Under the pieces are notes generated by a model. That model was not told where the DNA came from and did not search any database. It saw only the letters and a list, made by a program, of their open reading frames with translations. Shown in pieces: positions 46,638-63,764 of a stretch of DNA of 64,000 nucleotides. The translations under genes were made by a program, and so were the position numbers. The stretch spans positions 1,185,887 to 1,249,886 of the forward strand of contig OZ246394.1 of NCBI GenBank assembly GCA_965230895.1, written 5' to 3'. The DNA comes from an uncultured Gammaproteobacteria bacterium. Lineage in GTDB: Bacteria > Patescibacteriota > Microgenomatia > Levybacterales > UBA12049. Position 1 is the stretch's first letter. The number at the start of each line of letters is the position of its first letter.

Positions 46638-49622
46638 TTAATACCCTCTAAAGACTGCATTAAGGAACATAGTCACAGAATCACTTAATCCTCCATCAGA
46701 TTTATGTTTGGTTAGATCCTGCCAGAGGCCACGAAGGAACATTCTGAATTCGGTAGTCTTGGAAAGATTCTTCAACCATTTGATATCTTCTTTCGAGAAG
46801 AAGTTCTTGGTTACAGCTCCAGCAGTAAGATTAAATTCATCACCAAGGAAGTCTGCCGGGATCGAGTTAATTGCATCGAGAACTGTCGTGAAATAGTGAA
46901 CATTATAATTTGGATCTTTACTATGCTTGTCTATGTGTGTCCATAAGTCTCCCCCAAGTTTCATTAGCGCCCATTGTTTGTATGCTTGCGTTGGTTTCTC
47001 TTGGAGCTTTGTATAGTCAATCTCATAGCGACCATCAGCACCGATAATCCACTTCCCTGGTTTATCTTTTCCATTTTCATCTTTTTCACATTTACGATAT
47101 TCAGGAATGTCCAATATTTGATGCCCAAAAAGTGCCTCTCCCAACGGCATTTCTCGGAACTCATACTTATCCTTGCCATTCTTATCTCGTCCCATGAAGA
47201 CTTGATCCCGGACAAGCATGCTGTAGTTTACTTCACCAAACGTGTCAAATAAATATCGGAGCGGTTTCAAGAAATCTTCCTGAATTTCTTTCTGGAATTC
47301 TTCCCTATTGAAACTCATATGGCGGGTGAGAGGATCATACTTAGAGAATTTATCAAACTTAATCTCCTTTGCGCCCATAAGTCCATCGTATACTTTTTGA
47401 GCACGAGCGACGTGGTTCGCGACGTAATTTGTCATCGCCCGCTCATGGAACTCCAATTGTCCGGCGACACGGTTAGCGCTTTTATATAAATCTTCAAGTT
47501 CTTTCCGCTTTGCATTATATTTTTCAACATCATTTTTAGACTCCTCTATTTCTTTTTCCAAACGTTTTCTCGCTGCAAGCTGCTCAAGTCGCGTTTCGTT
47601 CATATCTTCAAAGACTTCACGGAGTGCTTTTTTTCGAGTTTGCTTTTTTCCGTTACGATCAACAACTTCATTGCCATCTTTATCTTTTGAATTTGTATAG
47701 GCCTGAGACACGCGAATACCATTCATGAAGTCCAACATTACTCGCTTGAACATCGGAATTGTATACAGATTACCTGCGCCATTACCACGTGAATCGGTAA
47801 CCATCTTTCGACGATATCCTTCTGTTCCCGTAAGCTTCTTTGTCGAGTCATACGCTGAAAAACCAACGTCATTTCTTGTCGCAGCTCCAGAAAAACGTAG
47901 CCATGATTTGGCGAGAAGAAGCGCCATATCCAAACTCGCATTGTCGACCACCATTGCATCACCATGATCGAGGGCATGTTCGTCAACTGCATAGATATTC
48001 TGTTCTCCCGAAGTAAATGAATGCTGGTCTTGAAGCGAAATTTTGAGTGCCTCTCGTACCACTTTTTCTAGCATTCCACTGTAGGCCATAGCGCCAAAGT
48101 AGTTTGCAAACGCTGAAAATCCACCTTTCTTTTCACCGGTTTTTGGGTCAATCTGATATTCCACAGCGTTTCCCTCTTTGTCAAAAGCAGCATCAAAACC
48201 ATTTGCTTGATCACCTAGGAATACCATCATTTCATCACGGCTAACGCGAGTTTGTTTATGTTTGCTTTTTACAACATTCTTCATCGCTTGCTTCCATGTA
48301 TCCTTCTGGAAGAATATTGAATCTTCCCCCATGACATTCTGCAATTCTTTGAAATCAGCCAGATTATAGTAGGCAAGCAAAGCCGTCGTAAATGCTGCTC
48401 CGACTTTATCATCAGGTTGTTCTTTGTTGTAGTCAAGCGCAAACGTAGACATAAAGTATGTCATGCTTTTACCATAGGAGGATTTTGTAATCTTATTCTT
48501 ATAATACAACTCGTTCAATTTCTTCGTGAGGTCTCCACCGCTTGACATCACTGTCTGGTAGTTTAGATCATAGTTTCGGAGATACATGACAGACAGCACT
48601 TCTTTAAGCAATTGATCATAAAGCTCTGTATTCATATGATTATCTTCATCATTAAAGAAACGAGATTTTTCGTCGATGAGGTCGTCAAGGGTAACAGGGC
48701 GGTATTCTTTTGGAATTTTGACTGCATGAAAGAAATCCACTTCAGAATCTGGTTCTTTATCATCAGCATAGAAGACGATAATCGTACGCATCCATCGCAT
48801 AAAATTTGCGTTATTCACATGATATCTTCCTCTAAATTCACCTTTCTCATCTTTCCGTACTTCCATCTGCATGATTGGGTATCGTCCATTAATACCAAAT
48901 TCAGCAGAGTCGTTGTAACCGATTTGCCAACCAAGTTGCTCTAATCCTTGAGGAGTTTTACTATCGTATTCGTTTTTATTCTCGTCGTTGAATTCATCAT
49001 AAAGAACATATTTGCGGACATATTCATCACGATCGATGCCAAGTCCGTGCGTTTCATTTGTGAGGAGCACTCGTTTTCTATAGTCTTTGCGGCTCCCACC
49101 ATATCGTTCTACGTAACGATCGACCTCGGCCTGAATTTCATTTTCGGCCTTATCACTCAAGTTAAGCATTTCACGGGTTTTGGCAACTGCCGCATCACCT
49201 GTGTAACCCTGGCCGACGAGGATTTCCATGAGGTTGTTAATTTTCCCTCGGACAGCTCTCTTTTCAAGCTCTGTCATAGCTGTTTCATCCCAATCAAGTA
49301 TTTTTTTGAGGTTCTCAGCAACTTCTTTTTTTTGTTTATTCTCTTCATTTTCTACATCCCAACCAAATTCCTTCCAGCTATCCATTTTACGAAGTACTGT
49401 TCCTTGTTTTTTCTCGGCTTGTTCCGCTTCAACACCAGCATCTAAGCCTGCTTCAAACTCTCGGAGCTCTTCCTCAATCTCAGACCATCTTTTCGGAGAA
49501 ATTCTTTTTGCAGCTGCAACGGCCTCTTCTGCAGAGTTTTCGGCAACATCTACTCCACCTTCATTCATAGTTCTATTATATCGGCTTGCGGAGAAGCCAG
49601 TCAATTCACTGTGGTTTTCCAT
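46638..49622 (-). CDS. large (994 aa) soluble protein of unknown function
   Basis: Uninterrupted ORF with no TM and no recognisable catalytic motif; sits between the VirB6-like gene and the regulator. Confidence 0.5.
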   Translation of the reverse strand: MENHSELTGFSASRYNRTMNEGGVDVAENSAEEAVAAAKRISPKRWSEIEEELREFEAGLDAGVEAEQAEKKQGTVLRKMDSWKEFGWDVENEENKQKKEVAENLKKILDWDETAMTELEKRAVRGKINNLMEILVGQGYTGDAAVAKTREMLNLSDKAENEIQAEVDRYVERYGGSRKDYRKRVLLTNETHGLGIDRDEYVRKYVLYDEFNDENKNEYDSKTPQGLEQLGWQIGYNDSAEFGINGRYPIMQMEVRKDEKGEFRGRYHVNNANFMRWMRTIIVFYADDKEPDSEVDFFHAVKIPKEYRPVTLDDLIDEKSRFFNDEDNHMNTELYDQLLKEVLSVMYLRNYDLNYQTVMSSGGDLTKKLNELYYKNKITKSSYGKSMTYFMSTFALDYNKEQPDDKVGAAFTTALLAYYNLADFKELQNVMGEDSIFFQKDTWKQAMKNVVKSKHKQTRVSRDEMMVFLGDQANGFDAAFDKEGNAVEYQIDPKTGEKKGGFSAFANYFGAMAYSGMLEKVVREALKISLQDQHSFTSGEQNIYAVDEHALDHGDAMVVDNASLDMALLLAKSWLRFSGAATRNDVGFSAYDSTKKLTGTEGYRRKMVTDSRGNGAGNLYTIPMFKRVMLDFMNGIRVSQAYTNSKDKDGNEVVDRNGKKQTRKKALREVFEDMNETRLEQLAARKRLEKEIEESKNDVEKYNAKRKELEDLYKSANRVAGQLEFHERAMTNYVANHVARAQKVYDGLMGAKEIKFDKFSKYDPLTRHMSFNREEFQKEIQEDFLKPLRYLFDTFGEVNYSMLVRDQVFMGRDKNGKDKYEFREMPLGEALFGHQILDIPEYRKCEKDENGKDKPGKWIIGADGRYEIDYTKLQEKPTQAYKQWALMKLGGDLWTHIDKHSKDPNYNVHYFTTVLDAINSIPADFLGDEFNLTAGAVTKNFFSKEDIKWLKNLSKTTEFRMFLRGLWQDLTKHKSDGGLSDSVTMFLNAVFRGY

Positions 49623-49688: not shown

Positions 49689-51017
49689 TTAGCTTATAAA
49701 TTTGAAGCCACGGCCTTTAATTGTATGGAGATGTGTCGGATGATTTGCATCTTCCTCAATTTTTCGCCGTACACGAAAAATAAGCTGATCCACGGCCTGA
49801 TCCGTGATACCTGCTGTTGACTTCATGCTCGACCATACTACGTTAATAAGTTCTTCCCGGTCCACAACTCGATCCTCATTCTGTAGCAAGTAGGTCAGCA
49901 AACGAAACTCAGATGAGGTGAGCTGGTCAGAAAGAATTGTCGAACCCTTCTTAATAGTATTAGTATTTTGATCATAAATAATTTTCTTTGATGTACTATT
50001 TTCCGTACCAGAATCTGAAGCCACAAACGCCGAAAGGAGCGGGATCTGCACAATATTATCTTTTAATAACCCTATGTTTTGGAGATATGTACGGACTTCT
50101 TCCTCTTCAAAACTATTCTCTTGGATATCAGCTTGTTCTGCAGGAGAAAGTGACAACCATATCTCACGTAAAGCACTCTTTATAGTTTTCTGCGCTAATA
50201 GATACTTTTGGAGATCGTCAGGGATCTCGCCATAACCAAGTAACGACTCTACTGCAATTTTGGTCAATTTACCATGTCCACCAGTCAGCTTCAACACGGC
50301 ATCGAGAACAGATTTTTCAAGTTTTTTGCTGGAAACTTTCTCTACAAATGATAGGCGATGTTTCGAAAAGACTTCATCATATAAAGAGACATAGACAATC
50401 TTCCCTGCAACAAATTCATAATAATCTGCAAGAAGTGATGGCTCCAAAAGATCTTCCAAAGGCCGATTTACAGAAAATACAATTGAGAAATGATATTTTG
50501 CTCGATTCCTAAGAATTCTCAAGTTACTAAAGAATTCCACAGGTACAGTACGGATATATTCCTCAAAGCGACTAAAGAGGAAGACCGTGGTTAGCTTGCG
50601 TTCCAATGCAAGGTAATCGATTGCTTCTTTGAATCCTTGGAAAAGAACCAGTTCATCATTGAATTGTAAATGCTCACGGAACTTATCTCCAACAACCTGG
50701 TTCTCTGCCTTCAAGCCACGTTCGCGTAACGACTCAGTTAAATTGAGGAAGAGAAATTTCATAACATCAAAGAGTGGTCGTGTTTTAATCTCAGAAAAGT
50801 CTACGATGACGAAATGCGTATTCTTTTGAGCATCCTTCAGGTATTTTTGTCTGATCTTACTATTATTTGCCAACAGCCCGAGGATTGTTGAACGACTGAC
50901 ACCCGGCATTCCGACAACCTGGCAAGAATTACCTTCCTTAATATATTGGATAATTTTTGAGATTTCCTCTTCACGTGTTGTGTCTGGAAATTGTGCTTCA
51001 AAATATTCTTCTACCAT
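49689..51017 (-). CDS. AAA+/P-loop ATPase fused to C-terminal OmpR/PhoB-type winged-helix DNA-binding domain (putative regulator)
   Basis: N-terminal VVGMPGVSRSTILGLL P-loop-like segment with hhhhD-type Walker B candidates (FVIVDFSE, VFLFSRFEE). C-terminal LTSSEFRLLTYLLQNEDRVVDREELINVVW...DQLIFRVRRKIE...TIKGRGFKF matches the trans_reg_C signature. Confidence 0.6.
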   Translation of the reverse strand: MVEEYFEAQFPDTTREEEISKIIQYIKEGNSCQVVGMPGVSRSTILGLLANNSKIRQKYLKDAQKNTHFVIVDFSEIKTRPLFDVMKFLFLNLTESLRERGLKAENQVVGDKFREHLQFNDELVLFQGFKEAIDYLALERKLTTVFLFSRFEEYIRTVPVEFFSNLRILRNRAKYHFSIVFSVNRPLEDLLEPSLLADYYEFVAGKIVYVSLYDEVFSKHRLSFVEKVSSKKLEKSVLDAVLKLTGGHGKLTKIAVESLLGYGEIPDDLQKYLLAQKTIKSALREIWLSLSPAEQADIQENSFEEEEVRTYLQNIGLLKDNIVQIPLLSAFVASDSGTENSTSKKIIYDQNTNTIKKGSTILSDQLTSSEFRLLTYLLQNEDRVVDREELINVVWSSMKSTAGITDQAVDQLIFRVRRKIEEDANHPTHLHTIKGRGFKFIS

Positions 51018-51101
51018 ACTATGATTCTAATTTGTTTCAAGCCAATCTTCAAGTAAATTTCTATGCTTGCATAGCATGCAGTTCTTTAGTATCGTAGATT
51101 T

Positions 51102-51428
51102 ATGGACTACTTAGCACTTACCTTACCAGGGAATAGATCAATTGAACCACCTGCAGGAGCAAATTTGCCCACAGGAGGATTAGACACATTATCCAATGCT
51201 ATTAGCGTCGGAATTTCATGGATGATTATTATTGCAATCATCCTTTCCTTATTTTTTCTTGTAACAGGAGGTATTGCTTGGTCTTCATCTGGTGGAGATA
51301 AGGGCAAAATTGCAGCTGCAAGAGCAAGACTTACGTATGCTCTTGTTGGTTTACTCGTAGCAATTTCAGCGTTCTTCATAATTAATGTATTCGGAACCTT
51401 TTTGGGCGTTAAATTCTTTGGGAATTGA
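51102..51428 (+). CDS. VirB2/T4SS-pilin-like small hydrophobic protein, paralog 1
   Basis: Shares the TM-GGIAWSSSGGDKGKIAAARARLTYALVGLLVAISAFFI core with the next two genes; N-terminal region lacks a clear signal peptide. Confidence 0.45.
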   Translation: MDYLALTLPGNRSIEPPAGANLPTGGLDTLSNAISVGISWMIIIAIILSLFFLVTGGIAWSSSGGDKGKIAAARARLTYALVGLLVAISAFFIINVFGTFLGVKFFGN

Positions 51429-51467
51429 GATAATCTGATCTATTGACAAAGATTAAATTATTGTTCT

Positions 51468-51896
51468 ATGATGAATAAAGATAATATGAAAAAAGTTCTA
51501 ACAGCGATAGTTTCAGGAAGTGCAGCATACCTTGCAACAGCAGGATACGCATTAGCAGGAACAAGTGTTGATCCATGTGATGGTATCCAAAGTGGATTTG
51601 ATACGCTTTGCGGTCTTAGTGGAGATAATCTTGGAGCAATTATTGGTGCTGCTGTTACCTTCATCTTGATTGTTGCAGTTCTTATCGCTCTCTTCTTCCT
51701 TATCTTTGGAGGTATCCGATGGATCACATCAGGTGGAGATAAAGCAAAAGTAGAAAGTGCACGAGGCACTATTATCGCAGCAATCATTGGTTTAGTTATC
51801 GCTTTCTTAGCATTCTTCATCCTCTCACTCGCTTTGAGTTTCTTCGGCTTGAGTCTCTCAAACCTTCAACTCCCTACACTCGAAGGAATCAACTAA
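51468..51896 (+). CDS. VirB2/T4SS-pilin-like protein, paralog 2
   Basis: Signal peptide (real start probably MKKVLTAIV at 51486), two TM helices flanking GGIRWITSGGDKAKVESARG. Confidence 0.55.
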   Translation: MMNKDNMKKVLTAIVSGSAAYLATAGYALAGTSVDPCDGIQSGFDTLCGLSGDNLGAIIGAAVTFILIVAVLIALFFLIFGGIRWITSGGDKAKVESARGTIIAAIIGLVIAFLAFFILSLALSFFGLSLSNLQLPTLEGIN

Positions 51897-51973
51897 GATT
51901 CTCTTTACATTTACTCTAATTGATATTGTTATACCTCTTGCATTCTATTAAATATCTTTGCTAGGCTAATTAT

Positions 51974-52372
51974 ATGTTAAAGAAATTACTTGTATCAGCT
52001 CTAGCTGTAGTAACTTTATTTTTCGCTACGGCACCAGTCGCGCCTGTACATGCACAATTTCGGGATTGGGATCAAGGTTGTTTGAAAGATGGTGTAGCAT
52101 CACTTCGATGTATTCCATTTGTGTTTGGAAATATTGTAACAGCTCTTCTTATCTTTGTAGGGACAGTAGCTGTTATCTTGCTCGTTTATGCGGGCATTCG
52201 ATTTATCACATCAGGTGGAGACCCAAAGAAAGTTGCAGGGGCACGACAAATAATTACGTACGCCATAATTGGATTAGTACTTGTATTATCATCGTTCCTA
52301 ATAATTACACTCATCAGTTACACAACTGGCGTCGAATGTATCAGGACGTTTGGATTTGCTAACTGCAAATAG
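51974..52372 (+). CDS. VirB2/T4SS-pilin-like protein, paralog 3
   Basis: Signal peptide MLKKLLVSALAVVTLFFATAPVAPVHA; core AGIRFITSGGDPKKVAGARQIITYAIIGLVL. Confidence 0.55.
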   Translation: MLKKLLVSALAVVTLFFATAPVAPVHAQFRDWDQGCLKDGVASLRCIPFVFGNIVTALLIFVGTVAVILLVYAGIRFITSGGDPKKVAGARQIITYAIIGLVLVLSSFLIITLISYTTGVECIRTFGFANCK

Positions 52373-52601: not shown

Positions 52602-54002
52602 ATGGACCAACATCCTATACCACAAGACGTTACCGGATTTCAGTTTAAATTGATCGGCACAATGACTGTTAAGCAGTTCGGTTATGTTGCGGTGGGAGCA
52701 GTAATGGCAGTTGTCCTCTATTACCTACCTCTATCAGGTTTTTTTGCTGTTCTTTTTAAAGTATTTATGATCCCTATACTTGGAGCAAGTGGCGTTATTG
52801 TTGCTTTTGTACCAATAGACGGTCGACCGATAGATACTATGGCTACAAATTTTGTAAAAGCACTCTTTTCTCCAAATCAGTATATATATAAAAGACAAGG
52901 GAGAAAGATGAGCTTTTCAACAGTAACAGTAGTCAAGCCTGTGGCTGCAACGACGACAGCACAAACTGCAGCAACCCCAGTAAAGTCAGTGGGTTCAGCA
53001 AAAGATCTTGATGCTAAAGAAGAAAAATTAAGAGCATTCCTTATGAGTTCTCAAGGACGAGTTAAAAACGATCTTGATAAAAAGGAGGCATCGTTCCTTA
53101 AGACATTCGGACCCCCAGCTATTGCTGTACCAAATAAAGCACAGATTGGAGCAGCTCCTACACCAGCTATTCCAGTGAGACCTGCTGCACCAACATTACA
53201 GAAAGCTCAGGTGGCAAAACCGACAATAATACAACCACTGTCACAAATACAGAAAACTGCACCTTTGACACCAAAACCAGCAATTACGCCAGCTCAACCT
53301 GTTCAAAAACCAGTAATGGCTGCTCCTGCTCCACAAAAGGAAACACCAGAGACATTGGCACAGAAAGAACAAGTACTGACACAAGAACTTGCGCAAGCAA
53401 AGCAGGAAGAAGCTACACAAGTACAACCTGCTGCACATGATGCGGCTCATGCAAAGGTAGAAATACTTGCAAAGCAAATTGAAGATATCCATTCTCAAAA
53501 GCAGAAGCTTGAGACTGAACTTATGGCCTTGAGACAGCAGCTCACAGAACAAAAGAGTCAGCCAACACCAGTTCAACAGCCTGCGACTGTACCAGCTCCA
53601 GCTGCAAAACCAGCAATCCCAATCCAGGACCCGCATCTAGTCAAAGTTGTAGCCGCAGATGGAGCAGTAAAGAAGCATGATGTTCCACGAGTATCAGACA
53701 CACCAAATGTTGTTGTTGGTATTGTAAAAGATCCTCGAGGTAACATATTGTCAAATATACTTGTTGAGGTAAAAGATAGCGAAGGAAACCCGGTAAGAGC
53801 ATTTAAGACAAATCCTCTTGGACAGTTTGCTTCTGCAACACCTCTTAGTCCAGGAGTGTATACATTGGAGCTTGAAGATCCAAAGAAGCAACACAGTTTT
53901 GATGTTATTCAGATAACTGCGAATAATGAGATTATGCGTCCGATTGAAGTTATTTCTCATGATGCTCGAGAAGCATTGCGACAACAACTGTTCGCATCTT
54001 AA
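52602..54002 (+). CDS. membrane-anchored protein with Pro/Ala/Gln-rich linker, coiled-coil and C-terminal CarboxypepD_reg-like beta-sandwich
   Basis: Two N-terminal TM helices; PAxP-rich spacer; C-terminal VVGIVKDPRGNILSNILVEVKDSEGNPV...GVYTLELE pattern. Confidence 0.4.
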   Translation: MDQHPIPQDVTGFQFKLIGTMTVKQFGYVAVGAVMAVVLYYLPLSGFFAVLFKVFMIPILGASGVIVAFVPIDGRPIDTMATNFVKALFSPNQYIYKRQGRKMSFSTVTVVKPVAATTTAQTAATPVKSVGSAKDLDAKEEKLRAFLMSSQGRVKNDLDKKEASFLKTFGPPAIAVPNKAQIGAAPTPAIPVRPAAPTLQKAQVAKPTIIQPLSQIQKTAPLTPKPAITPAQPVQKPVMAAPAPQKETPETLAQKEQVLTQELAQAKQEEATQVQPAAHDAAHAKVEILAKQIEDIHSQKQKLETELMALRQQLTEQKSQPTPVQQPATVPAPAAKPAIPIQDPHLVKVVAADGAVKKHDVPRVSDTPNVVVGIVKDPRGNILSNILVEVKDSEGNPVRAFKTNPLGQFASATPLSPGVYTLELEDPKKQHSFDVIQITANNEIMRPIEVISHDAREALRQQLFAS

Positions 54003-54010: not shown

Positions 54011-54676
54011 ATGGCTGCCCAAAAAATACACGCAACAACACAAAAATTCACCGAGATCGTAGATTTTGGTGAAGACATTGTAATTCTCGAGGGAGGAAAT
54101 GCATGCATGATCATAGAGATCACTGCAAGTAACTTCGCGTTGCTTTCAAAAAGAGAACAAGATTCGAGAATCTTCTCATATGCAGGACTTTTAAATTCTC
54201 TTTCCTTCCCTATTCAAATTTTAATTCGTAACCGCCGTATGGACATCTCACAATACATTAACGAGCTTAATGAGGTGATTAAGAACACGAAGAATCCACA
54301 ATTGAAAGCATATGTCGAATATTACAGTGGCTTTGTTCAAGAAATGGTCACTGTTAATGTCGTTTTGAATAAGCAATTTTATATCGTAATCCCCTTCTCC
54401 TCGCTTGAAATGGGTGTAACTGGTGCGACACAAGCAACGCAAAAAGGACAAGCTCAAGTTGATGCTTTTACAACAGCTGCAAGAAAGGCATTACAAACAA
54501 AAGCAAACTCCCTCCTTGGGCAACTTCAGAAATTCGCAACTTCGGCAAGAGTACTGGAAAAAGAAGATTTGATAAAACTCTTTTACGAAATTTACAATGA
54601 GTCTACTGAAGTTGCCATGGATCAGATGGAAGAAGGGGCAGAAGCTTCAATCGTGAAAGGAGGAACACCACAATAA
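54011..54676 (+). CDS. hypothetical soluble protein immediately upstream of VirB4 (stop/start overlap)
   Basis: 221 aa, no TM; ATGA overlap with the VirB4 gene suggests translational coupling. Confidence 0.4.
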   Translation: MAAQKIHATTQKFTEIVDFGEDIVILEGGNACMIIEITASNFALLSKREQDSRIFSYAGLLNSLSFPIQILIRNRRMDISQYINELNEVIKNTKNPQLKAYVEYYSGFVQEMVTVNVVLNKQFYIVIPFSSLEMGVTGATQATQKGQAQVDAFTTAARKALQTKANSLLGQLQKFATSARVLEKEDLIKLFYEIYNESTEVAMDQMEEGAEASIVKGGTPQ

Positions 54677-56718
54677 TGAATTTGCCATTTGGAAAAAAAG
54701 CTAACCCAGCAGCTCCTACAGCTGCACCTGTTGCAGGACAAAAACCTGCAGTAGCGGCCGCAAAGCCAGGTGCTGCTCCAGCAAAAGGGAAAGCTCCTGC
54801 TGCGCCAGTTTCAAAAGGCATAGACACATTTGAAAAAGGTCTTACGTCTGTCGTGGACCTTATTGCCCCATCATCAGTAGAAGTTGATTTCCGGTATATT
54901 CGAGTTGGAGACAACTTCTATACTACGCTTTTTATTGCAGGATACCCACGTTATGTATCACCTGGTTGGCTTGAAGGCATTATCGATTACGATCATACAA
55001 TGGATATTGCGATGTTTTGCTATCCAACCTCCTCTTCTGATGTCCTCGCAGATTTGAAAAGAAAAATTGGAGAAATGCAGGCAACACTTGCGTCAGATGC
55101 TGAACAAGGAAAAGTTGCAGATCCGACAGTTGAAGCTGCTCTTGAAGATGCTTTGGGCCTCCAGGAAGAACTTGCAAAGGGCGTTGAAAGATTCTTCCAA
55201 TTTGGTTTTTATATTACCGTCTCAGATGGCGATATCACAAGGCTTCAGGAAACAATTAAAAATCTTCAAACAGCACTCAACGGGCTTTTGCTTACAGGAA
55301 AAATTGCAACGCTGCAAATGGAAGAAGGATTTAAATCATCACTTCCGATTGGACAAGACAGACTCTATATTACTCGTAATATGGATACCTCATCTTTGGC
55401 TTCGACCTTTCCATTTACCTCTGCTGTTTTGACGCAAAACAGAGGTGTTATGTACGGTGTGAACCAACAAAATGGATCGCTCATCATTTTTGATCGGTTC
55501 TCTTTGGAAAATGCAAACGAAGTTGTACTCGGAAAATCCGGTGCAGGAAAATCTTTTACGATTAAGCTTGAGATCATGCGGCAATTCATGCTTGGAGCCG
55601 AAGTTATTGTTATTGATCCTGAAGGAGAATATGAGACAATGACCCCTGCTCTTGGCGGTGAAGTTGTAGAGTTCTCATCAGGTTCGGCGATAAAAATTAA
55701 TCCGTTTGACCTCTCAGATATTTATGAAGAGGGAGAAAATGAACTTGGATTGAAGATTCTCTCACTACATGGTCTACTCAAAATTATTACAGGTGATCTT
55801 GATGCAGAACATGATGCGATTCTTGATCGTGCGCTTATTGAAACATATAAATCTAAAGGTATTACTACAGATCCTGCAACACAAAAGAAACAACCACCGT
55901 TAATGGAAGATTTATACAAAATCCTTCTTGGTATGGAAAATGAGCCAGCACGTGAGTTGGCATATACCCTTGAGAAGTTTATTAAAGGTAGTGCTTCTGG
56001 CATCTTCAATCAACAATCAAACTTTGAGATTAACAATCCGCTTACAGTTTTCTCTATTCGAAATCTCGAGGAAGCACTCCGTCCAGTGGCAATGCATATC
56101 ATTCTTGATTTCGTTTGGACCAAAGTTAAACGATCATTGAAAAAGCGTATTTTGATCCTTGATGAAGGTTGGTACATGATGAAGTATCAAGACTCAGCCT
56201 CATTCGTTTATTCAATTGCCAAACGTGCTCGTAAATACTTCCTTGGGATGACAACTGCCACACAGGATGTTGAAGACTTTTTGAAAAACGAATACGGAAA
56301 AGCTGTCCTTACCAACTCGTCTATTCAGGTGCTTCTCAAACAAGGTACAGCAGAAGTTGATATGATTACCGACACTTTCTACCTTTCAGAGGGAGAGAAA
56401 GCCTTACTGCTTTCTGCGGACGTAGGAGAAGGCCTTTTCTTTGCTGGACAGAATCACGTAGCAATGAAGGTTTTTGCGGCTCCTTTTGAACATGAACTCA
56501 TCACATCCAACCCAATGGAACTCCTTAAAAGACAGCAGGAGAAAGAGCGCGCAAATCTAGCAGAAGGTATTAAACCGGAAGCAGAGCCCGGCCAGACATC
56601 AGTAGAGAATCCTTCAGTAGCTCCTGCCACCGAACCTGGAATACCTTCGGTAGAAAATCCTGATATCCCCTCAACTCCGCCGCCAGGAACACCTCCAGGT
56701 GGGAATCCAAATGCTTAA
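54676..56718 (+). CDS. virB4: type IV secretion system ATPase VirB4/TrbE/CagE family (Gram-positive TraE/PrgJ-like)
   Basis: Walker A VVLGKSGAGKS, Walker B RILILDEGW; N-terminal domain YTTLFIAGYPRYVSPGWLEGII typical of VirB4. Confidence 0.85.
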   Translation: MNLPFGKKANPAAPTAAPVAGQKPAVAAAKPGAAPAKGKAPAAPVSKGIDTFEKGLTSVVDLIAPSSVEVDFRYIRVGDNFYTTLFIAGYPRYVSPGWLEGIIDYDHTMDIAMFCYPTSSSDVLADLKRKIGEMQATLASDAEQGKVADPTVEAALEDALGLQEELAKGVERFFQFGFYITVSDGDITRLQETIKNLQTALNGLLLTGKIATLQMEEGFKSSLPIGQDRLYITRNMDTSSLASTFPFTSAVLTQNRGVMYGVNQQNGSLIIFDRFSLENANEVVLGKSGAGKSFTIKLEIMRQFMLGAEVIVIDPEGEYETMTPALGGEVVEFSSGSAIKINPFDLSDIYEEGENELGLKILSLHGLLKIITGDLDAEHDAILDRALIETYKSKGITTDPATQKKQPPLMEDLYKILLGMENEPARELAYTLEKFIKGSASGIFNQQSNFEINNPLTVFSIRNLEEALRPVAMHIILDFVWTKVKRSLKKRILILDEGWYMMKYQDSASFVYSIAKRARKYFLGMTTATQDVEDFLKNEYGKAVLTNSSIQVLLKQGTAEVDMITDTFYLSEGEKALLLSADVGEGLFFAGQNHVAMKVFAAPFEHELITSNPMELLKRQQEKERANLAEGIKPEAEPGQTSVENPSVAPATEPGIPSVENPDIPSTPPPGTPPGGNPNA

Positions 56719-56764: not shown

Positions 56765-59533
56765 ATGGCCACTGATACCAAACCTAAAGACGAAGTAGAA
56801 AATGGACTAGTTGATCCTAAAAAAAAAGAACAACAAGAACAAGATCACGAATTTGAACTCCATCAAATAGCCCAAACCGCAAGTGGCAGAATACGTCGTT
56901 ATGGATTACGATTAAAGGCAGGACCAAAGCTCCATCAGGAAGTTAATGAATTAGCCGAAACTATTGAAAAAAGCATCACTTCACTCGCAAAGAAGGCACG
57001 ATCCGAAGACGCGCTACTTATTCAGGTTGAGGAAGAAATTCATAAAGTTGAGAAATATATTGATTCTGAAGCAAAGGCAGAGCACAAAAAAGAGAAAGAC
57101 GAAGAAGAGCGAGAAAAAAAAGAGAAGGAGGAAAAAGAACATCATGGAGGGCACGAGGAACATGAAGAGCATGATACAAGCCGCCACGAACAAGAAAAAC
57201 CTGCCAGCGCAAATAAAACGGTTGAGGAAAAAAGTCGAGATAAAGTAGAAGAACTAAAGGCTGAAATTGCAGCCGGAATAGCTGGAACTGCCGCGAGCAC
57301 AACCGTAGGATCTTCCCAAGCTTTTACTGATGAGCGCGCCAAACAACTCAAGGCAGAACAGGAAGCATATTTATCAGAAGCTGAAAAAGCAAGAATCGCA
57401 GCACTCCCCCCTGAAGAAAGAGCAAAAGTACGCTTAGAACAGATTAGAAATGGGACATACAAGAAACCTGAGATATCTGTGAAGCCTTCTGAAGGAGCTA
57501 AACCGAGAACAGATGCCGAAGCAGTTGAAGGATTTCATAAACAGCAACGCCCAGATGCAGCAAAAAAACGCCTCGAGCAATTGAGAGAAGAAGTACGATC
57601 ACAGAGAACTACCACCGGTGCACAAAAAAGCGTGAGAAAAATGGGGAGAAGCGCGCCTGCGCAAAGAAAACAATTAAGGACACAGACTCCTGGTTCAGTG
57701 ATACCAACTCGCCCCATGCCTCCACGACGAGTGCAAACAAGGATTTCTGCTGGGACAAGCCGACGAGGACCTGGGGGAAAAATAACTACAACATCAACTA
57801 CTGAGAGTATATTCTCTCATGACGACGGGAGAACATACGAAGACATTACCGAATTTAGAATGCGAAGGCCGATGCCTTCAACCATGACGACAGAGGCAGA
57901 AACACGTGGTGGATCATACGGACATGGTTCAGGTGGCTCACAAGGTGGCGGATCTGAGCATGGAGGTGACAGTGGCGGTGGCAGCGGAGGATCAGGTGGA
58001 GGAAACAACAGAGGTGGTTTAGGTCGAGCAAATCCTTTAAGAAATATTATGCGTGGAGGATTAGGTGGAGGACCAAAAGGATTAGCAAGCAAAGGACTTC
58101 AGGGATTAGCGAAAAACGGAACAAAGGTTGCTGCACAAGCCGCTCTGCGTAATCCTTATGTACTTGCTGCACTTGCAGTATTACTTATAGTTATTTTCCT
58201 TATATTATTTATCCTTGTACTTCTTGGTGATGCTGAAGAACAAAATCAGAAGAACGCATGCCAGGCTCCAGCCGAAACACTAAAAGCAACGATAACAGGA
58301 CCTGCAGCTGCAAATGCAGGCCAAGAACTAACATATGCAGTAAATATTACTGACACGGTTGCTGCACAAGATATTACAGTTGTAGCAACTATACCTCAAG
58401 GACAAACGTTCGTAAGATCAGATTGGGCAAAAAGCGTCGTCACAGGAAATACTGTAACCTGGAAGGCTGTGGAGAATCTCCCGCCAAACAGTTTAAGCCC
58501 CCCAAACTTTACTTTTAATATTACAGTTAGTCCAGGTGCAGCAAATACAAATTCTGTAATCATGGTTGATGCAACCCCTGTGAGAGCAGCCGCTATTGCT
58601 CCAGGCGGTGGTGGAGATCAACAGGCAGGAAGACAGAAAAGCACTGAAGAATTAAAGTCAATTTATGGTGCAGATCAGGCTGCGGTTGAAGCCAATCTTG
58701 TCACAATCAACTTTCAAGGAAAACAAGTTCAGGTACACAAACTTGTTCAAGGCGTATTTGAAAAAGTGAATAATGAAATAACAGCTGCAAATACCGGATA
58801 TGAATTTAGACAGGTTGGTACGTATGCATGGCGTACAAAGAATATTCCAGGTCAAAATTCTACAGAACTTTCAACACATAGTTTTGGGATAACCATGGAT
58901 ATTAATCCTGATACCAATCCTTACACTACGGCCAATACTCATGATATTCCGCAGCCAATCGTAGACATTTTCAAAAGAAACGGATTTATCTGGGGTGGTG
59001 ATTGGACGCCACAGCATGACTGGATGCATTTTGAATATGCTGGAGCACCAGGAGCAGTGCCAGGATCTGGAAATACTGGTGGCGGATGTAACCCAGGAGC
59101 TGGGGCACCAGTAAATGCAAATTATGTCCCTCCAAGTGCAGATACTTGTGGAGGTAAATATAAATTAACCAGTCCTCTTAAGATGAATTTTGGAGATCCA
59201 CAGTGTAATTTTAATAAAGACGCTTTATATTCACAATTAAAGACTGAGGATCCTGCAAATGCTGATGTTTGGTTTAACAAAGTCGTGCCTTGTGAAAGTG
59301 GATATAATCCAAATGCATATGCTGGTCCAAGTACGGGTACCCCCGACGCTGCAGGAGCATGGGGTCTATATCAAATGGGTAGTGCAAACCCGCCAGGTTC
59401 CCCACCTCCTGCACCTGGTAAAAATGGAATTAATGATCGTGGAGATGTACCGTGGACAATACAAACAACTAATGCGACTACATATGGTAAAAAAATTGCG
59501 AGACTTGGAGCATATTGGGCATGTGCTAGATAA
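56765..59533 (+). CDS. membrane-anchored cell-wall hydrolase with peptidase M15 (VanY-like) and lytic-transglycosylase-like domains (VirB1/PrgK-like)
   Basis: TM LAALAVLLIVIFLILFILVLL; DUF11-like segment; M15 zinc motifs STHSFGITMDIN and DWMHFEY; SLT-like CESGYNPNAY...GAWGLYQM. N-terminal half E/K/G-rich low complexity. Confidence 0.6.
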   Translation: MATDTKPKDEVENGLVDPKKKEQQEQDHEFELHQIAQTASGRIRRYGLRLKAGPKLHQEVNELAETIEKSITSLAKKARSEDALLIQVEEEIHKVEKYIDSEAKAEHKKEKDEEEREKKEKEEKEHHGGHEEHEEHDTSRHEQEKPASANKTVEEKSRDKVEELKAEIAAGIAGTAASTTVGSSQAFTDERAKQLKAEQEAYLSEAEKARIAALPPEERAKVRLEQIRNGTYKKPEISVKPSEGAKPRTDAEAVEGFHKQQRPDAAKKRLEQLREEVRSQRTTTGAQKSVRKMGRSAPAQRKQLRTQTPGSVIPTRPMPPRRVQTRISAGTSRRGPGGKITTTSTTESIFSHDDGRTYEDITEFRMRRPMPSTMTTEAETRGGSYGHGSGGSQGGGSEHGGDSGGGSGGSGGGNNRGGLGRANPLRNIMRGGLGGGPKGLASKGLQGLAKNGTKVAAQAALRNPYVLAALAVLLIVIFLILFILVLLGDAEEQNQKNACQAPAETLKATITGPAAANAGQELTYAVNITDTVAAQDITVVATIPQGQTFVRSDWAKSVVTGNTVTWKAVENLPPNSLSPPNFTFNITVSPGAANTNSVIMVDATPVRAAAIAPGGGGDQQAGRQKSTEELKSIYGADQAAVEANLVTINFQGKQVQVHKLVQGVFEKVNNEITAANTGYEFRQVGTYAWRTKNIPGQNSTELSTHSFGITMDINPDTNPYTTANTHDIPQPIVDIFKRNGFIWGGDWTPQHDWMHFEYAGAPGAVPGSGNTGGGCNPGAGAPVNANYVPPSADTCGGKYKLTSPLKMNFGDPQCNFNKDALYSQLKTEDPANADVWFNKVVPCESGYNPNAYAGPSTGTPDAAGAWGLYQMGSANPPGSPPPAPGKNGINDRGDVPWTIQTTNATTYGKKIARLGAYWACAR

Positions 59534-59559: not shown

Positions 59560-60129
59560 ATGAAAAGAAAGAAAGAAGACTATTTTGTTATTGGATTAGG
59601 TGTCGTACTTGTTGTCGTTATTTTTATGATAGCTTTTATAGTTGCAAAGGAAAATCAACAAAAGCCAGAAGAAAATATAAGCATTGTCCCAACAGATAGC
59701 CCAACAGCAGCACCAGTACCGACAAGACAAACAGACCAGCCAAATAGCAATCCACCTGTTCTCTATGATGATAATGCGCAAAATAAACTTGTGGCATATG
59801 TAAAGGCGAGACAGCCAATCTCAGATACAGATAAGCTAGCTAAAGCAAAAATGTTGGCATTACGTCCTGAAAATCAAATGTCGGGAGTTATTCATCAAAC
59901 GCAAAATATAAGAATTGACTACACCAGATCTGCAGATCTTTTCCAGGTTGAAATACTAACAACAAATGTACAAGATGCAAAAAATGAAGCTAATATATGG
60001 CTTCGAACTCAAGGATTAAGTCAAGACGGAATTTGCAAATTACCTATTGGCTTCTACCTTAACTACGATATCGCTAACGAATTAAGAGAAACGGGATATG
60101 TATTTAATCCTTTAGCAAATGGCTGTTAA
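59560..60129 (+). CDS. membrane-anchored extracytoplasmic protein, paralog A1 (ends FNPLANGC)
   Basis: N-terminal TM; domain shares SDTDKLAKAKM...ADLFQVEILTT...DGICKLPIGFYLNYD...FNPLAxGC with A2. Confidence 0.45.
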   Translation: MKRKKEDYFVIGLGVVLVVVIFMIAFIVAKENQQKPEENISIVPTDSPTAAPVPTRQTDQPNSNPPVLYDDNAQNKLVAYVKARQPISDTDKLAKAKMLALRPENQMSGVIHQTQNIRIDYTRSADLFQVEILTTNVQDAKNEANIWLRTQGLSQDGICKLPIGFYLNYDIANELRETGYVFNPLANGC

Positions 60130-60631
60130 TATGCAATTTATAAAAAGTAATAAAAAATTAGTTTTTTTTGTATTACTTTTACTAATAGTATTTCCTATAA
60201 GTTTATCTCTTTATCGACTTGAGCCTCAAAATAGCGAAAAGAAGACAAAGGAGACTCCTCCAATAAAGGAATCTGCTCAAGCTGTCGATCCAGAGAAAAG
60301 GCTTCTTGATTACATTCAAAATAGACGCCCTTTATCAGACTCAGATAAACAAGCTAAAAATACTATCATTCAAAGAGTTGATCAATCTGGGATTGCATTC
60401 AGATCTGACACAATATCAATCGAGTATATAAAGTCTGCAGATATGTTCCAAGTCGAAATATTATCAACGAAAACTGATGTTGCAAAAGAGGAAGCAGTAA
60501 ATTGGTTCAGGCAAAACGGTATGAGCAAAGACGGTTTATGTAATTTACCTATTAGCTTTTATCTCAATTATGAAGTCGCAAATACTAATTCGCAGGAAGA
60601 TACATTTAATCCACTCGCACCAGGTTGTTGA
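60119..60631 (+). CDS. membrane-anchored extracytoplasmic protein, paralog A2 (ends FNPLAPGC)
   Basis: Tandem duplicate of A1; 11 nt overlap. Confidence 0.45.
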   Translation: MAVNMQFIKSNKKLVFFVLLLLIVFPISLSLYRLEPQNSEKKTKETPPIKESAQAVDPEKRLLDYIQNRRPLSDSDKQAKNTIIQRVDQSGIAFRSDTISIEYIKSADMFQVEILSTKTDVAKEEAVNWFRQNGMSKDGLCNLPISFYLNYEVANTNSQEDTFNPLAPGC

Positions 60632-60679
60632 AAGTGTATGAACTTGCGCACTTACAAGTGAGCTTGATATGATGATTTT

Positions 60680-61354
60680 ATGAACGCTAATTTTTTGTCT
60701 AAATCGATCAATTTTATAAAAGGAAATAAAGCCATTGTAATAGCTGTAGCATTAGTTATTTTATTCATTTATATTTTAGTTGTTTCAATTACTGCAACAT
60801 CTTCACAAAAGAATCCAAGAGATCCAAACTCCCCTGATCCAACAAGAAGTTCATCTTCCGGAGGAGGACCAGTCCCAACAGCATCAAAGGATGTTTCCAT
60901 ATACGAGCCGAACACAGTTTGGCAACCCACAAGATTTTCAGAGAGTAGTATCCAAAACGTTTTAATTGAAAAAACACAATTAAACGATGGTTCGACAAAA
61001 TACAAATATCAATCTGAAGATCCAAAAAGACCCAATGAACTAATCGTTAAAGATAATGAAGTTATTTATCAACGAACTGTTATAAAGAACAAATACATAT
61101 ATAACTATACCAATACTCTTGGCGCTCCAGACTTTGTTTTTGAAAGTTCAAAATATTATGGTCCAAGTACAATGATTTATGTCTATCTTAAGAGCGGGAC
61201 AGCATTTGTAGCAGACGATAAGACAACAATTGTAAAAGAGCAATTATCTTTTAAACCAACTTCTTTTGAGCAATTTCGAGACAAATATGGAGACGATATT
61301 GCTGATTACAAGATTATACCAACACTTCCAGATGAAGATTTTGCACGACCATAG
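60680..61354 (+). CDS. membrane-anchored extracytoplasmic protein, paralog B1
   Basis: N-terminal TM, S/P/G-rich linker; shares DGS..Y...S..P.R...IVK......GP..YGP.T.IY.Y...GTA...F.P.S..EF pattern with B2. Confidence 0.45.
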   Translation: MNANFLSKSINFIKGNKAIVIAVALVILFIYILVVSITATSSQKNPRDPNSPDPTRSSSSGGGPVPTASKDVSIYEPNTVWQPTRFSESSIQNVLIEKTQLNDGSTKYKYQSEDPKRPNELIVKDNEVIYQRTVIKNKYIYNYTNTLGAPDFVFESSKYYGPSTMIYVYLKSGTAFVADDKTTIVKEQLSFKPTSFEQFRDKYGDDIADYKIIPTLPDEDFARP

Positions 61355-61360
61355 AATCAT

Positions 61361-61990
61361 ATGCTCATAAGATATATTATTGCCATTGTAATATCATTAA
61401 GTCTTCTTGTTATGCTGCCTATAATTGATATCCCCTCTTATGCCGCTGTAAAGGCATGTTTCTTAACCAAGATTGGACCCAATGCACCAGCAGACTTTAC
61501 GATGCCTCCAGGATGTGGAGGTGATATAAGTGGAGATGCCAAACAGCTTGCGCAACAAATATTAAATAATCCGAAGATAACTCTCTCTTCTCAAGCACGA
61601 CAAGACATCCAAGCAACAGTCGATGGTAAGCAAATACAGAATTCCGATTCGTGCAACAATGCTGTGAGTTTGAGTCCGGCCTTATTAAAACTTATTCTTC
61701 AAATAGCCCAAACGCATTCATACGACTTAAATTACATAATTACACAGCATGGATGCGATACTGCATATCATCCCAAAGGCAGGGCAATGGATATCGGTAA
61801 AGCCGATGGTCAAAGCAGTTGGCAAAACACACAGTTCCGCCAAGATGTCGCGAATCTTTTACCCGAAGGTGGAGGACTAGGCCAACAAGGTTGTCCTGCA
61901 AGTGCTGGTGTTTCAGGGAAAAATTCTATTCGTCAATTTGCTGATGCATGCACCCACCAGCACGTTGATGTGGGAGCAACAGCACAATAA
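61361..61990 (+). CDS. secreted small peptidase M15-like (Hedgehog/DD-peptidase fold) protein
   Basis: Signal/TM N-terminus; YHPKGRAMDIG (HxxGxAxD) and THQHVDV His motifs resemble LAS/M15 zinc ligands. Confidence 0.35.
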   Translation: MLIRYIIAIVISLSLLVMLPIIDIPSYAAVKACFLTKIGPNAPADFTMPPGCGGDISGDAKQLAQQILNNPKITLSSQARQDIQATVDGKQIQNSDSCNNAVSLSPALLKLILQIAQTHSYDLNYIITQHGCDTAYHPKGRAMDIGKADGQSSWQNTQFRQDVANLLPEGGGLGQQGCPASAGVSGKNSIRQFADACTHQHVDVGATAQ

Positions 61991-61992
61991 TC

Positions 61993-62646
61993 ATGAGAAA
62001 CTCTTCCAATGTATTTAACTCAATTCTTAAAGGTAATTTTGCATATATACTACTTGGCGGCGCGCTTATAATTCTTCTTCCGATTATCTTTGTCTTCAAT
62101 TCGTATTCTTCTGAAAATTTGAGTAAAGAAGAACCGACACCGACTGGTGAGTCTCAGCAATCAGCATCTGGAGGAAAAGCACCTGCAAACAGAATTTCAC
62201 CAACAAAAAATCCGACAGGCACTACAATCTCTGATGAAAAAAATGCAGTAGAATCAGGACCAGTTTCTTTTTCAAATCTGAGCGAAATTGCAAATGACGC
62301 ACAAAAGCAAACCCAAAGCGATGGATCAGTCATCTATACCTTTGAGTCGCTCCATCCAAATCGATCGGACATGATTATTGTAAAAAATGGATCAATTATT
62401 TTTTCTCGACATGCGGTCGTCGGAGTGGGAGCAAGTGATAAATATAAAAGCCTTTTAGAGAAGCAAGCAAAAACAATCCAAGGCCCAACATTTTACGGAC
62501 CAAATACTTTAATTTATTTCTATGAGAATGGCGGTACAGCACTTATTGCAAATCCTCAAACCGATACAACATATGAAGAATTTACATTTCAACCTCCAGT
62601 ATCACTTGCGGAATTCAATTCTACATATAAGAAATATACTCTATAG
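61993..62646 (+). CDS. membrane-anchored extracytoplasmic protein, paralog B2
   Basis: Paralog of B1 (see above). Confidence 0.45.
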   Translation: MRNSSNVFNSILKGNFAYILLGGALIILLPIIFVFNSYSSENLSKEEPTPTGESQQSASGGKAPANRISPTKNPTGTTISDEKNAVESGPVSFSNLSEIANDAQKQTQSDGSVIYTFESLHPNRSDMIIVKNGSIIFSRHAVVGVGASDKYKSLLEKQAKTIQGPTFYGPNTLIYFYENGGTALIANPQTDTTYEEFTFQPPVSLAEFNSTYKKYTL

Positions 62647-62654: not shown

Positions 62655-63764
62655 TTAACTTTGAACGCGGATTGGCATGATCATATGAAGGTACGATTCA
62701 TCACCTTGAACTTTAAATACACCAGGATTCAACGGTCCAATCATATCAAACGCTAAATCTTTTTCTTCAACATTTGAGAGAACATCTAAGAGATATCGTG
62801 CATTAAATGCAATTTCATTCTCTTCCCCATTTAATTTAGCATCAACACGAACAGTGTTTTCTCCTATAGCGGATGATCCTGAAGAAACAGTGATGTGGTC
62901 CGATGAAAGAGCAAGCTTAATGATATTTGCAGAATCTCGAGCAAAGACTGAACATATTTTTACGGCTTTTAATAATTCATCTTTATCGAAGGAAACACTG
63001 ACTGAGAAGTCTGACGGGATTATCTTTTCAAAATTAGGAAACTCCGCTTCAATTAATCTTCCAATTAAAATTGTATCCTCCTGTTCAAATAGTACCTGAT
63101 TATTTTGTTGCGAGACATACATGGATATATCTTTGTTTTCATCCTTCAGAGAAAGTAATTCTCGGAATACACGCGCTGGAATAATGAATGACGACGCTTC
63201 TGAAGCTTTATTCTCTGAAGTTTTATAATGACGTAGTGAGAGTCTATAACCATCGGTCGCTACAAGAAGAAATCCCTCAGCTTCTTTACGAACTAAGACA
63301 CCTGATAATGCAGGTCGTGTTGTATCAGGACTGGCAGAAAAAACGACTGACGAGAACTCTTTCTTAATATCTTTACCAGATAATGTTGCTAATATTTCTC
63401 CTCGTTCTTCATAAAGCTTAGGGAATTCTTCGCTACTGATTGTTTGAAAGGTACTCTTAGTTCGCTTTGTTTGAACTTCGAGCGTACTATCTTCAGAGGT
63501 TAAGGTTAATACTTCATCAGTTAGTGAATTAATAAGCTCTGTAAATAATTTTGCTGGTACTGTAGTTTCTCCCTCTTCTTCTATCTTCGCTGGACAATAA
63601 GTCTCAATACCTATTTCAAGATCAGTCGTACTTAGTTTTACTTTATCTCCTTTTGCTTCTATCAAAATATTCTGTAGAACGGGTAATTGGCTTTTAGAAG
63701 AGACTGCTTTATTAAGAAACGAAAGTTTATTTTGAAGGTTAGGGGTCAATATCTGTACTTTCAT
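62655..63764 (-). CDS. dnaN: DNA polymerase III beta subunit (sliding clamp)
   Basis: MKVQILTPNLQNKLSFLNKAVSSKSQLPVLQNILIEA... three-domain DnaN, 369 aa. Confidence 0.9.
   Translation of the reverse strand: MKVQILTPNLQNKLSFLNKAVSSKSQLPVLQNILIEAKGDKVKLSTTDLEIGIETYCPAKIEEEGETTVPAKLFTELINSLTDEVLTLTSEDSTLEVQTKRTKSTFQTISSEEFPKLYEERGEILATLSGKDIKKEFSSVVFSASPDTTRPALSGVLVRKEAEGFLLVATDGYRLSLRHYKTSENKASEASSFIIPARVFRELLSLKDENKDISMYVSQQNNQVLFEQEDTILIGRLIEAEFPNFEKIIPSDFSVSVSFDKDELLKAVKICSVFARDSANIIKLALSSDHITVSSGSSAIGENTVRVDAKLNGEENEIAFNARYLLDVLSNVEEKDLAFDMIGPLNPGVFKVQGDESYLHMIMPIRVQS

Follow-up and report, generated by a model that had tools for sequence, protein, structure and literature searches.

Tandem arrays of small VirB2-like pilin genes have been described in the type IV secretion systems (T4SSs) of Patescibacteria. 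In the excerpts used here of the survey by Quinonero-Coronel 2025 (PMC12102498), PF18895 is among the profiles employed, VirB2-like pilins are recorded in 1,948 assemblies, and arrays of such genes beside virB4, each with 2-11 members, number 441 and occur especially in Microgenomatia and Saccharimonadia, with a mean identity of 25% within arrays. The same excerpts state that the T4SS genes of Patescibacteria frequently lie near dnaA/dnaN and that relaxases are mostly absent, and suggest that these bacteria may have co-opted VirB2 from diderm T4SSs. According to the relevant part of Wang 2023 (PMC10633639), epibiotic growth of Southlakia epibionticum requires both a pilin series and the T4SS, and a 2025 review (PMC12857230), likewise cited from excerpts, highlights the arrays and a possible pilus in a monoderm. 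Essentiality of the system for epibiotic growth comes from the one species tested. Here we describe three tandem genes, termed p1, p2 and p3, in a 64,000-nucleotide stretch of contig OZ246394.1 (hereafter the window; all positions are those of the window unless stated otherwise). The locus is an instance of the described feature, namely tandem VirB2-like arrays beside virB4 near the origin. What is new here is that the array consists of three old orthogroups in a fixed order, with a leaderless p1 class and amplification of p2 only. We consider it likely, with a probability of about 0.7, that p1, p2 and p3 are three non-redundant PF18895 subunits of a chromosomal, origin-proximal, monoderm-type T4SS of Patescibacteria.

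To the extent covered by the published excerpts, the array shares with those of S. epibionticum and Nanosynbacter lyticus TM7x, and with the 441 surveyed arrays, the PF18895 domain, tandem diverged copies, a location beside genes for PrgI/VirB3, TrsD and VirB4, a T4SS of the monoderm type, and a chromosomal position near dnaA/dnaN. It differs in belonging to the Levyibacteriota and in having three copies, as against six in S. epibionticum. The resolution of an array into three fixed orthogroups, one of them always leaderless, was not found in the excerpted array descriptions. The three genes, with product lengths in amino acids (aa), are:

51102..51428, plus strand: p1, 108 aa, pilin-like hairpin protein without a signal peptide
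51468..51896, plus strand: p2, 142 aa, pilin-like hairpin protein with a variable C-tail and a predicted Sec signal peptide
51974..52372, plus strand: p3, 132 aa, pilin-like protein with a predicted signal peptide and four conserved cysteines

These open reading frames (ORFs), separated by gaps of 39 nt (p1-p2) and 77 nt (p2-p3), agree exactly in coordinates, length and strand with those listed in a preliminary description made from the letters alone, which we call the sequence-only reading. Alignment of the three products bears out their proposed kinship at 28-40% identity, with p1 and p2 being 40% and p1 and p3 28% identical over the whole hairpin core. Their invariant residues concentrate in a common motif, (G/A)GI(R/A)(W/F)..SGGD.xK...AR. 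The core motif given earlier fails at two positions in p3, which has AGIRF rather than GGIxW. Comparison of the p1-family and p2-family profiles using hhalign gave a probability of 99.8% (E 3e-29), and the similarity among the paralogs is therefore far beyond chance. Thus, p1, p2 and p3 are homologous two-helix hairpin proteins.

In searches with the Pfam HMM T4SS_pilin (PF18895), the test proposed by the sequence-only reading, p2 (40.3 bits) and p3 (37.1 bits) score above the gathering cut-off of 26.6 bits, and p1 (26.0 bits) falls 0.6 bit short of it. All 26/26 p1 orthologs match this profile (best E 2.6e-10), as do 38/38 p2 orthologs. Moreover, most members of the p1 family carry a precomputed PF18895 assignment, and the 535 homologs of p2 are all PF18895. 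Membership in PF18895 is firm, and the family membership taken together with the gene context, as we read them, is highly probable.

To trace the array across relatives, 79 loci were fetched around VirB4 relatives, their ORFs were called, and these were searched with an HMM built from the three paralogs, each match being assigned to its best-matching paralog. The loci are mostly titled Levyibacteriota or Patescibacteria, with several others bearing plainly unreliable automatic names, and the closest, with VirB4 identities of up to 93%, come from metagenome-assembled genomes titled Candidatus Levyibacteriota or Patescibacteria. Arrays were counted over the 49 loci in which at least 6 kb of sequence is available upstream of VirB4; of these, 16 have exactly p1-p2-p3, and 3 more have the same trio with a large pilin-domain protein (330-590 aa) in front. 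Several loci contain extra p2 copies, the copy number of p2 ranging from 1 to 5, and the PrgI gene nearly always has p3 as its closest pilin copy. No copy was detectable within 10 kb in 13 loci; in 12 of these VirB4 is at most 59% identical to that of the window, the exception being L037 at 72%. The syntenic order is a 660-aa protein, a 994-aa protein, a regulator, p1-p2-p3, PrgI, TrsD, VirB4, a hydrolase, bitopic proteins and dnaN. Hence p1, p2 and p3 are three ancient orthogroups retained in fixed order across Levyibacteriota. The extra p2 copies have their nearest relatives in the same locus or genome, and are therefore independent lineage-specific duplications. The variation in copy number that was to be looked for in relatives accordingly exists for p2 in some lineages, and not for p1 or p3.

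The large proteins with a pilin-like domain lie directly upstream of p1 in several relatives, and none is present in the window. In coordinates of the respective related loci, they are:

L020, 5475-6545: large pilin-domain protein
L023, 2515-3684: large pilin-domain protein
L028, 1938-3083: large pilin-domain protein
L042, 4251-5675: large pilin-domain protein
L069, 2721-4073: large pilin-domain protein
L077, 2479-4254: large pilin-domain protein

The p1 class is distinguished by its N-terminus. In p1, the first transmembrane (TM) segment (TM1) spans approximately residues 37-56, the basic loop 57-76 and the second segment (TM2) 77-99. An in-frame TAG at 51087-51089, four codons 5' of the ATG, prevents any upstream extension of the gene. 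Its orthogroup comprises about 30 relatives of 104-122 aa, called independently in many datasets, all without signal peptide or cysteine; the N-terminus MDYLALTLPGG is almost invariant and is followed by conserved prolines and GG. The dN/dS of p1 is 0.10-0.22. The earlier suggestions that p1 may be degenerate or may use an internal start are both contradicted by these data, the whole orthogroup being leaderless with a conserved N-terminus. A pseudogene or a mis-started gene is ruled out by the stop, the N-terminus and purifying selection. In the profile alignment, the N-terminus of the p1 family pairs with the signal peptide of p2, in its C-terminal half, which suggests that p1 may descend from a signal-peptide-bearing ancestor through loss of the n- and h-regions.

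Annotation of this class appears to be error-prone. The protein collection does not contain p1 in its exact form, the best match there being 78% identical, and in public (Logan) assemblies of the same genome it is not p1 but an antisense ORF of 90 aa that is called:

51107-51379, minus strand: antisense ORF over p1, equivalent to L080 2640-2912 and L081 328-600

We treated this ORF, and another over p2 (51458-51820), as artefacts on the strand opposite a hydrophobic-coding one. Where p1 is called on the wrong strand, automated surveys may miss the p1 class and undercount array sizes.

Both p2 and p3 have signal-peptide-like N-termini, ending in YALA|G and VHA|Q respectively, as judged by inspection of n-, h- and c-region features and the -3/-1 rule. 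The orthologs of p2 begin with MKK, and the true start of p2 is therefore probably the corresponding ATG at 51486 rather than that at 51468. A sigma-70-like site, TTGACA-18-TATGAT (11/12), lies at 51443-51486, overlapping the first ATG of p2, which may thus have its own promoter; in a promoter scan, the overall count of promoter-like sites was not above the shuffled expectation, and we therefore claim no operon structure. The N-tail of p2 contains a cysteine pair, C37/C48, conserved in 46-48/52 orthologs, and its tails are the most variable among the three paralogs. Each tail of p3 contains two cysteines, C36 and C46 on the N-terminal side and C122 and C131 on the C-terminal side, conserved in 44-46/47 orthologs. 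In other genomes, roughly half of the orthologs of p3 (including those of L020, L024, L025, L031, L032, L041 and L051) are leaderless, starting with M..W..C, and keep all four tail cysteines; a cleavable leader thus seems to be dispensable for this family.

All three genes are under purifying selection, with dN/dS of 0.07-0.23 (Nei-Gojobori, five relatives), though these values are rough because dS is near saturation in several pairs. Direct repeats found among p1, p2 and p3 in this genome were limited to one 14-mer. An identical 17-nt string, ATCACATCAGGTGGAGA, is present at 51723-51739 in p2 and 52205-52221 in p3, where it encodes ITSGGD; we judge this identity to be coincidental because other genomes use different synonymous codons for the motif, the choice varying freely, and do not reproduce the match. 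Recent duplication or gene conversion among p1-p3 is accordingly rejected for this genome. The description of the array as triplicated and sequence-diverged stands as regards three diverged paralogs; the triplication is ancient, the copies being separate, conserved orthogroups in fixed order.

These results bear on the proposal, made in the sequence-only reading and also raised for patescibacterial arrays in the excerpts of PMC12102498, that such arrays permit antigenic or functional variation. In its explicit form, this would make the copies interchangeable alternative major pilins, differentially expressed or recombined in the service of host range or evasion. The low identity between the copies (28-40%), tails that are more variable than the core, the independent p2 duplications in several lineages and the promoter-like site just upstream of p2 are all in keeping with it. 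However, each orthogroup has its own class-specific features (p1 leaderless and without cysteine, p2 with two cysteines, p3 with four) in an order that does not change, selection is purifying on each, there are no repeats or conversion tracts here beyond the 17 nt encoding ITSGGD, only p2 amplifies elsewhere, and promoter-like sites are no more frequent than in shuffled sequence. Ancient ordered orthogroups without a signal of conversion favor fixed, non-redundant roles over antigenic variation, and we regard the latter as very unlikely. A similar contrast holds for Bartonella and Anaplasma, which, according to the same excerpts (PMC12102498), also have several diverged VirB2-type genes in tandem and a T4SS for host interaction: there the copies are thought to serve antigenic or host-range variation, whereas here they are ancient, class-specific and individually conserved. 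In one large lineage of the candidate phyla radiation (CPR), therefore, the three subunit classes of the array are constant and do not form an interchangeable pool, which narrows the structural and genetic hypotheses, for example to a heteromeric filament or to major plus minor pilins.

In hydropathy plots, each of the three proteins has two strong hydrophobic segments flanking a 20-residue loop with four K/R, and AlphaFold2 predicts helical hairpins for p2 (helices 52-87 and 92-131) and p1 (24-61 and 67-100) with a core pLDDT of about 90. Two hydrophobic helices folded into a hairpin with a short polar loop between them, a trait of PF18895, are thus seen in the hydropathy peaks of all three and in the AlphaFold2 models of p2 and p1. 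The N-tails of mature p1, p2 and p3 have net charges of -2, -4 and 0, the short C-tails have 0 to +1, and the tails contain 0-3 K/R versus four in the loop. Given the basic loop, the positive-inside rule predicts that the loop is cytoplasmic and both tails lie outside, as in VirB2. The conserved cysteine pairs, which in p2 and p3 are confined to the tails, fit this extracytoplasmic placement. VirB2/TraA-type pilins, such as VirB2 and F-pilin, have a cytoplasmic inter-helix loop while in the membrane pool, and in the assembled VirB2/F-type pili this basic loop lines the lumen. The sequence-only reading had taken predicted cytoplasmic loops as evidence against a two-TM pilin; this inverts the matter, as such a loop is what a VirB2-type protein is expected to have. 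Conservation is highest in the loop for p1 and p2, and equally high in the loop and TM2 for p3, while the least conserved segments in all three families are the tails, along with the signal peptides where present. For p1 and the leaderless p3 orthologs, the N-tail would have to be translocated without a leader, which is plausible for a short (about 36 residues) and acidic tail.

The genes around the array place it in a T4SS cluster that runs up to dnaN:

44628-46610, plus strand: 660-aa polytopic membrane protein bearing a signal peptide, syntenic in 20 loci
46638-49622, minus strand: 994-aa soluble protein, syntenic in 13 loci
49689..51017, minus strand: 442-aa candidate regulator with a C-terminal OmpR/PhoB winged helix (PF00486, E 1e-18)
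52602..54002, plus strand: 466-aa PrgI/VirB3-like membrane protein (PF12666 PrgI, 36.4 bits against a cut-off of 27, residues 5-96)
54011..54676, plus strand: 221-aa TrsD-like protein (weak NCBIfam TrsD match, E 5e-4)
54676..56718, plus strand: 680-aa VirB4-type ATPase (NF045971, monoderm CD1110 family, 383.5 bits against a cut-off of 325)
56765..59533, plus strand: 922-aa bitopic protein with a Peptidase_M15_4 domain (PF13539, E 2e-17)
59560..62646, plus strand: five small bitopic proteins (189, 170, 224, 209 and 217 aa) that have a single TM segment near the N-terminus
62655..63764, minus strand: dnaN, with all three DNA_pol3_beta domains

The PrgI/VirB3-like protein, found in 69 related loci, has TM peaks within residues 21-72 and a C-terminal CarboxypepD_reg-like beta-sandwich. 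The gene for the TrsD-like protein, found in 74 related loci, overlaps the VirB4 start with its stop, and its product matches the N-terminal part of the VirB4 model of Mycoplasma integrative and conjugative elements (ICEs; E 7e-9), a model that the window VirB4 also matches. VirB4 itself, with its 79 related loci, further matches the TraG P-loop domain PF19044 (E 1e-25). A monoderm-type VirB4 adjoined by PrgI/VirB3-like and TrsD-like proteins, the TrsD match being weak, is thus combined with an origin-proximal chromosomal position in a CPR genome. The position near the origin follows from dnaN beside the cluster, a flank shared by 53 related loci, and the chromosomal location also from the housekeeping genes (ribonucleotide reductase, class A PBP, glutamate dehydrogenase, tRNAs) that fill the rest of the window. 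The 922-aa M15 protein, which has a single TM segment (469-487) and is syntenic in 32 loci, carries a cell-wall hydrolase domain and is a candidate VirB1 analogue. Among the five small bitopic proteins, a Pfam scan detected no family matches; shared best matches and synteny point to two apparent paralog pairs (189/170 and 224/217), and all except the 209-aa one are syntenic in relatives. In size and topology alone they resemble VirB8/PrgL-type components, which are reported to be hard to find in Patescibacteria.

In comparison with the diderm pilins VirB2, TrbC and TraA (PF04956), exemplified by the Agrobacterium T-pilin and F-pilin, the similarities are a length of approximately 100-140 aa, the usual presence of a signal peptide (predicted here by inspection for p2 and p3), two helices with a short basic loop, a predicted N-out/C-out topology and a gene upstream of virB3/virB4. 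The differences are the lack of significant similarity, a monoderm host and the leaderless p1, and both the SGGDKxK..AR loop and the tail cysteine pairs are specific to the present family. VirB5, VirB7, VirB9 and VirB10 were not observed in the neighborhood of the locus. The characterization of the array as VirB2/TrbC-like in the sequence-only reading therefore survives with respect to hairpin architecture, PF18895 and position upstream of VirB3-like and VirB4 genes, but sequence or profile homology is not demonstrable by the searches used here.

Several observations indeed weigh against our interpretation. The TrbC/VirB2 profile PF04956, which had been proposed as a check, gives p2 11.1 bits against a cut-off of 27.9; it appears at E<=1 in 24/38 p2 orthologs (best 1e-4), alongside unrelated TM families, and no direct VirB2/TrbC homology can be demonstrated. 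Comparison of the p2 or p1 family with 30 Agrobacterium-type VirB2 sequences by hhalign gave a probability of 0.3%, a weak negative given the narrow, low-diversity VirB2 alignment (Neff ~3). The VirB2 query for this was an Agrobacterium sequence, verified as 99% identical to annotated virB2 in plasmids. A search of PDB sequences with the p2-family profile returned chance matches only (E >= 0.5). Likewise, Foldseek searches of the PDB with the AlphaFold2 models of p2 and p1 yielded nothing at E <= 0.001, the matches being generic helical hairpins; a bare helical hairpin is too simple a fold to be informative on homology. The only pilin among the best 50 of 120 Foldseek matches was the Aeropyrum pernix conjugation pilus (8dfu) at rank 11, with a target TM-score of 0.62 but a non-significant E of 2.9 and 8% identity. 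Archaeal Ced-type pili such as that of A. pernix CedA1 are comparable in being built of a hairpin pilin, in depending on VirB4 and in having no outer membrane to cross, but differ in that this Foldseek match falls short of significance. The same balance must carry the near-saturated dS behind the selection estimates, the absence of a signal peptide in p1, and the fact that no pilus has been seen for any patescibacterial T4SS, other monoderm T4SSs being pilus-free, according to excerpts of PMC12102498 and PMC12857230. To these is added the identity of the nearest curated relative, a protein of the ICEs of wall-less Mycoplasma, in which no pilus is known.

That relative is NF045849, the Mbov_0395 family of pilin-like conjugal transfer proteins, which p1, p2 and p3 match at 20.2, 21.4 and 23.3 bits, below the equivalog cut-off of 40 bits. 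It is also matched below threshold by 38/38 p2 and 25/26 p1 orthologs, with best E-values of 2e-8 to 4e-8 and alignments spanning nearly the full 80-position model, and is essentially the only NCBIfam family matched consistently. This signal appears to indicate remote relatedness rather than membership, and points to a probable relationship of p1, p2 and p3 with the small hairpin protein of monoderm MPF-FATA-type systems. The Mbov_0395/MMCAP2_0565 protein is likewise encoded by a small hairpin gene upstream of an ICE membrane protein and VirB4 in such a system; it differs in its length of about 80 aa, its lack of tails, the scores of 20-23 as against 40 bits, and the absence of any known pilus. 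Going by locus-tag order, it is apparently CDS15 of ICEA.

The specific matches to PF18895 and NF045849 speak to a further explanation, that the three merely lie beside the T4SS genes without being related to them, as small membrane proteins of a holin-like kind, for instance, or as effectors secreted via Sec. The two-TM architecture with a basic loop is common to many small membrane proteins, the fold searches recover nothing beyond generic hairpins, and the homologous array of TM7x was once treated as putative effectors. Against this stand, in addition to the two families, the synteny with the genes for PrgI, TrsD and VirB4, kept strictly in dozens of genomes, and a tblastn search of p2 against 72,556 plasmids that gave no match, which together make mere adjacency hardly credible.

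The NF045849 relationship lends more substance to another alternative, in which p1, p2 and p3 are parts of a membrane translocon, either lining its channel or forming VirB4-associated hairpins, and never build an extracellular pilus, as might be the case with Mycoplasma CDS15. The consistency of those matches across 38/38 p2 and 25/26 p1 orthologs, the lack of detectable similarity to VirB2, and the precedent of Gram-positive T4SSs without pili (excerpts of PMC12102498) all agree with it, as does the case of the mycoplasmas, which are wall-less and have no reported conjugative pilus, and whose CDS13/CDS15 are described as VirB3-like in the excerpted PMC12857230. But a separate PrgI/VirB3-like gene is already present here, the tails are the most variable parts and have conserved cysteine pairs as expected of exposed surfaces, a p2 copy number of 1-5 would be unusual for a stoichiometric channel part, and the NF045849 scores of 20-23 bits remain under the 40-bit cut-off. 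We consider a translocon role of this kind unlikely, though it merits attention.

Under the preferred reading of three non-redundant pilin-like T4SS subunits, each would be inserted in the cytoplasmic membrane with its tails outside and the basic SGGDKxK..AR loop inside, p2 and p3 via a cleavable Sec signal peptide and p1 via leaderless translocation of its N-tail. With the PrgI/VirB3-like protein as its anchor, the VirB4 ATPase would pull the subunits from the membrane, and these would polymerize into a VirB2-like filament or conduit across a wall opened by the M15 hydrolase, such that the conserved loop lines the lumen and the variable, disulfide-stabilized tails face outward. As the sole amplifying copy with the most variable tails, p2 would be the likeliest major, host-facing subunit, with p1 and p3 likelier to be minor or initiating ones; that these roles are assigned solely from patterns of copy number and variability is a further point against the scheme. 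By analogy with S. epibionticum, the resulting structure may serve in contact with a host cell or in exchange between the two. That an extracellular polymer may be formed at all is, in our estimate, only slightly favored over the contrary.

A more speculative extension, which we consider rather doubtful, is that the hairpin is ancestral to monoderm MPF-FATA-type T4SSs, being shared with CDS15-like proteins rather than borrowed as VirB2 from diderms, and that in Levyibacteriota it diversified into three obligatory classes, which co-assemble as a heteromeric conduit. If this were true, such a p1/p2/p3 conduit would represent the first case of a T4SS filament with several pilins in a monoderm. 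The sub-threshold link to the Mycoplasma ICEs in any case bears on the origin of these pilins, including the published idea of co-option from diderms.

Among the genes upstream of the array, the 442-aa winged-helix protein is a likely candidate for a regulator of the locus. It adjoins the pilin array in 25 related loci, and is divergently oriented here and in most of them, with several (L013, L042, L047) having it on the same strand as the array; its N-terminal region of about 340 aa gave no Pfam match above threshold. The 660-aa and 994-aa proteins belong to no Pfam or NCBIfam family, and the former is a possible VirB6 analogue by its architecture. A coupling-protein homolog is encoded about 40 kb from the T4SS cluster:

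9609-11993, minus strand: 794-aa VirD4/TrwB-type coupling-protein homolog (TrwB_AAD_bind, T4SS-DNA_transf)

This agrees with the published pattern, in which type IV coupling proteins (T4CPs) of Patescibacteria are rarely beside virB4. Among the cluster genes scanned, there was no relaxase or T4CP domain, the scan having covered part of the ORFs of the window. The window also contains a tRNA cluster with five tRNA-Ser and one tRNA-Arg, at 41673-41974 (minus strand), 42671-42846 (plus strand) and 43957-44043 (plus strand). The tRNA-Arg has the anticodon GCG, not the usual ACG, and in one tRNA-Ser a UCN-type body and a regular 7-nt loop (TTACTAA) are combined with ACT, an unusual anticodon.

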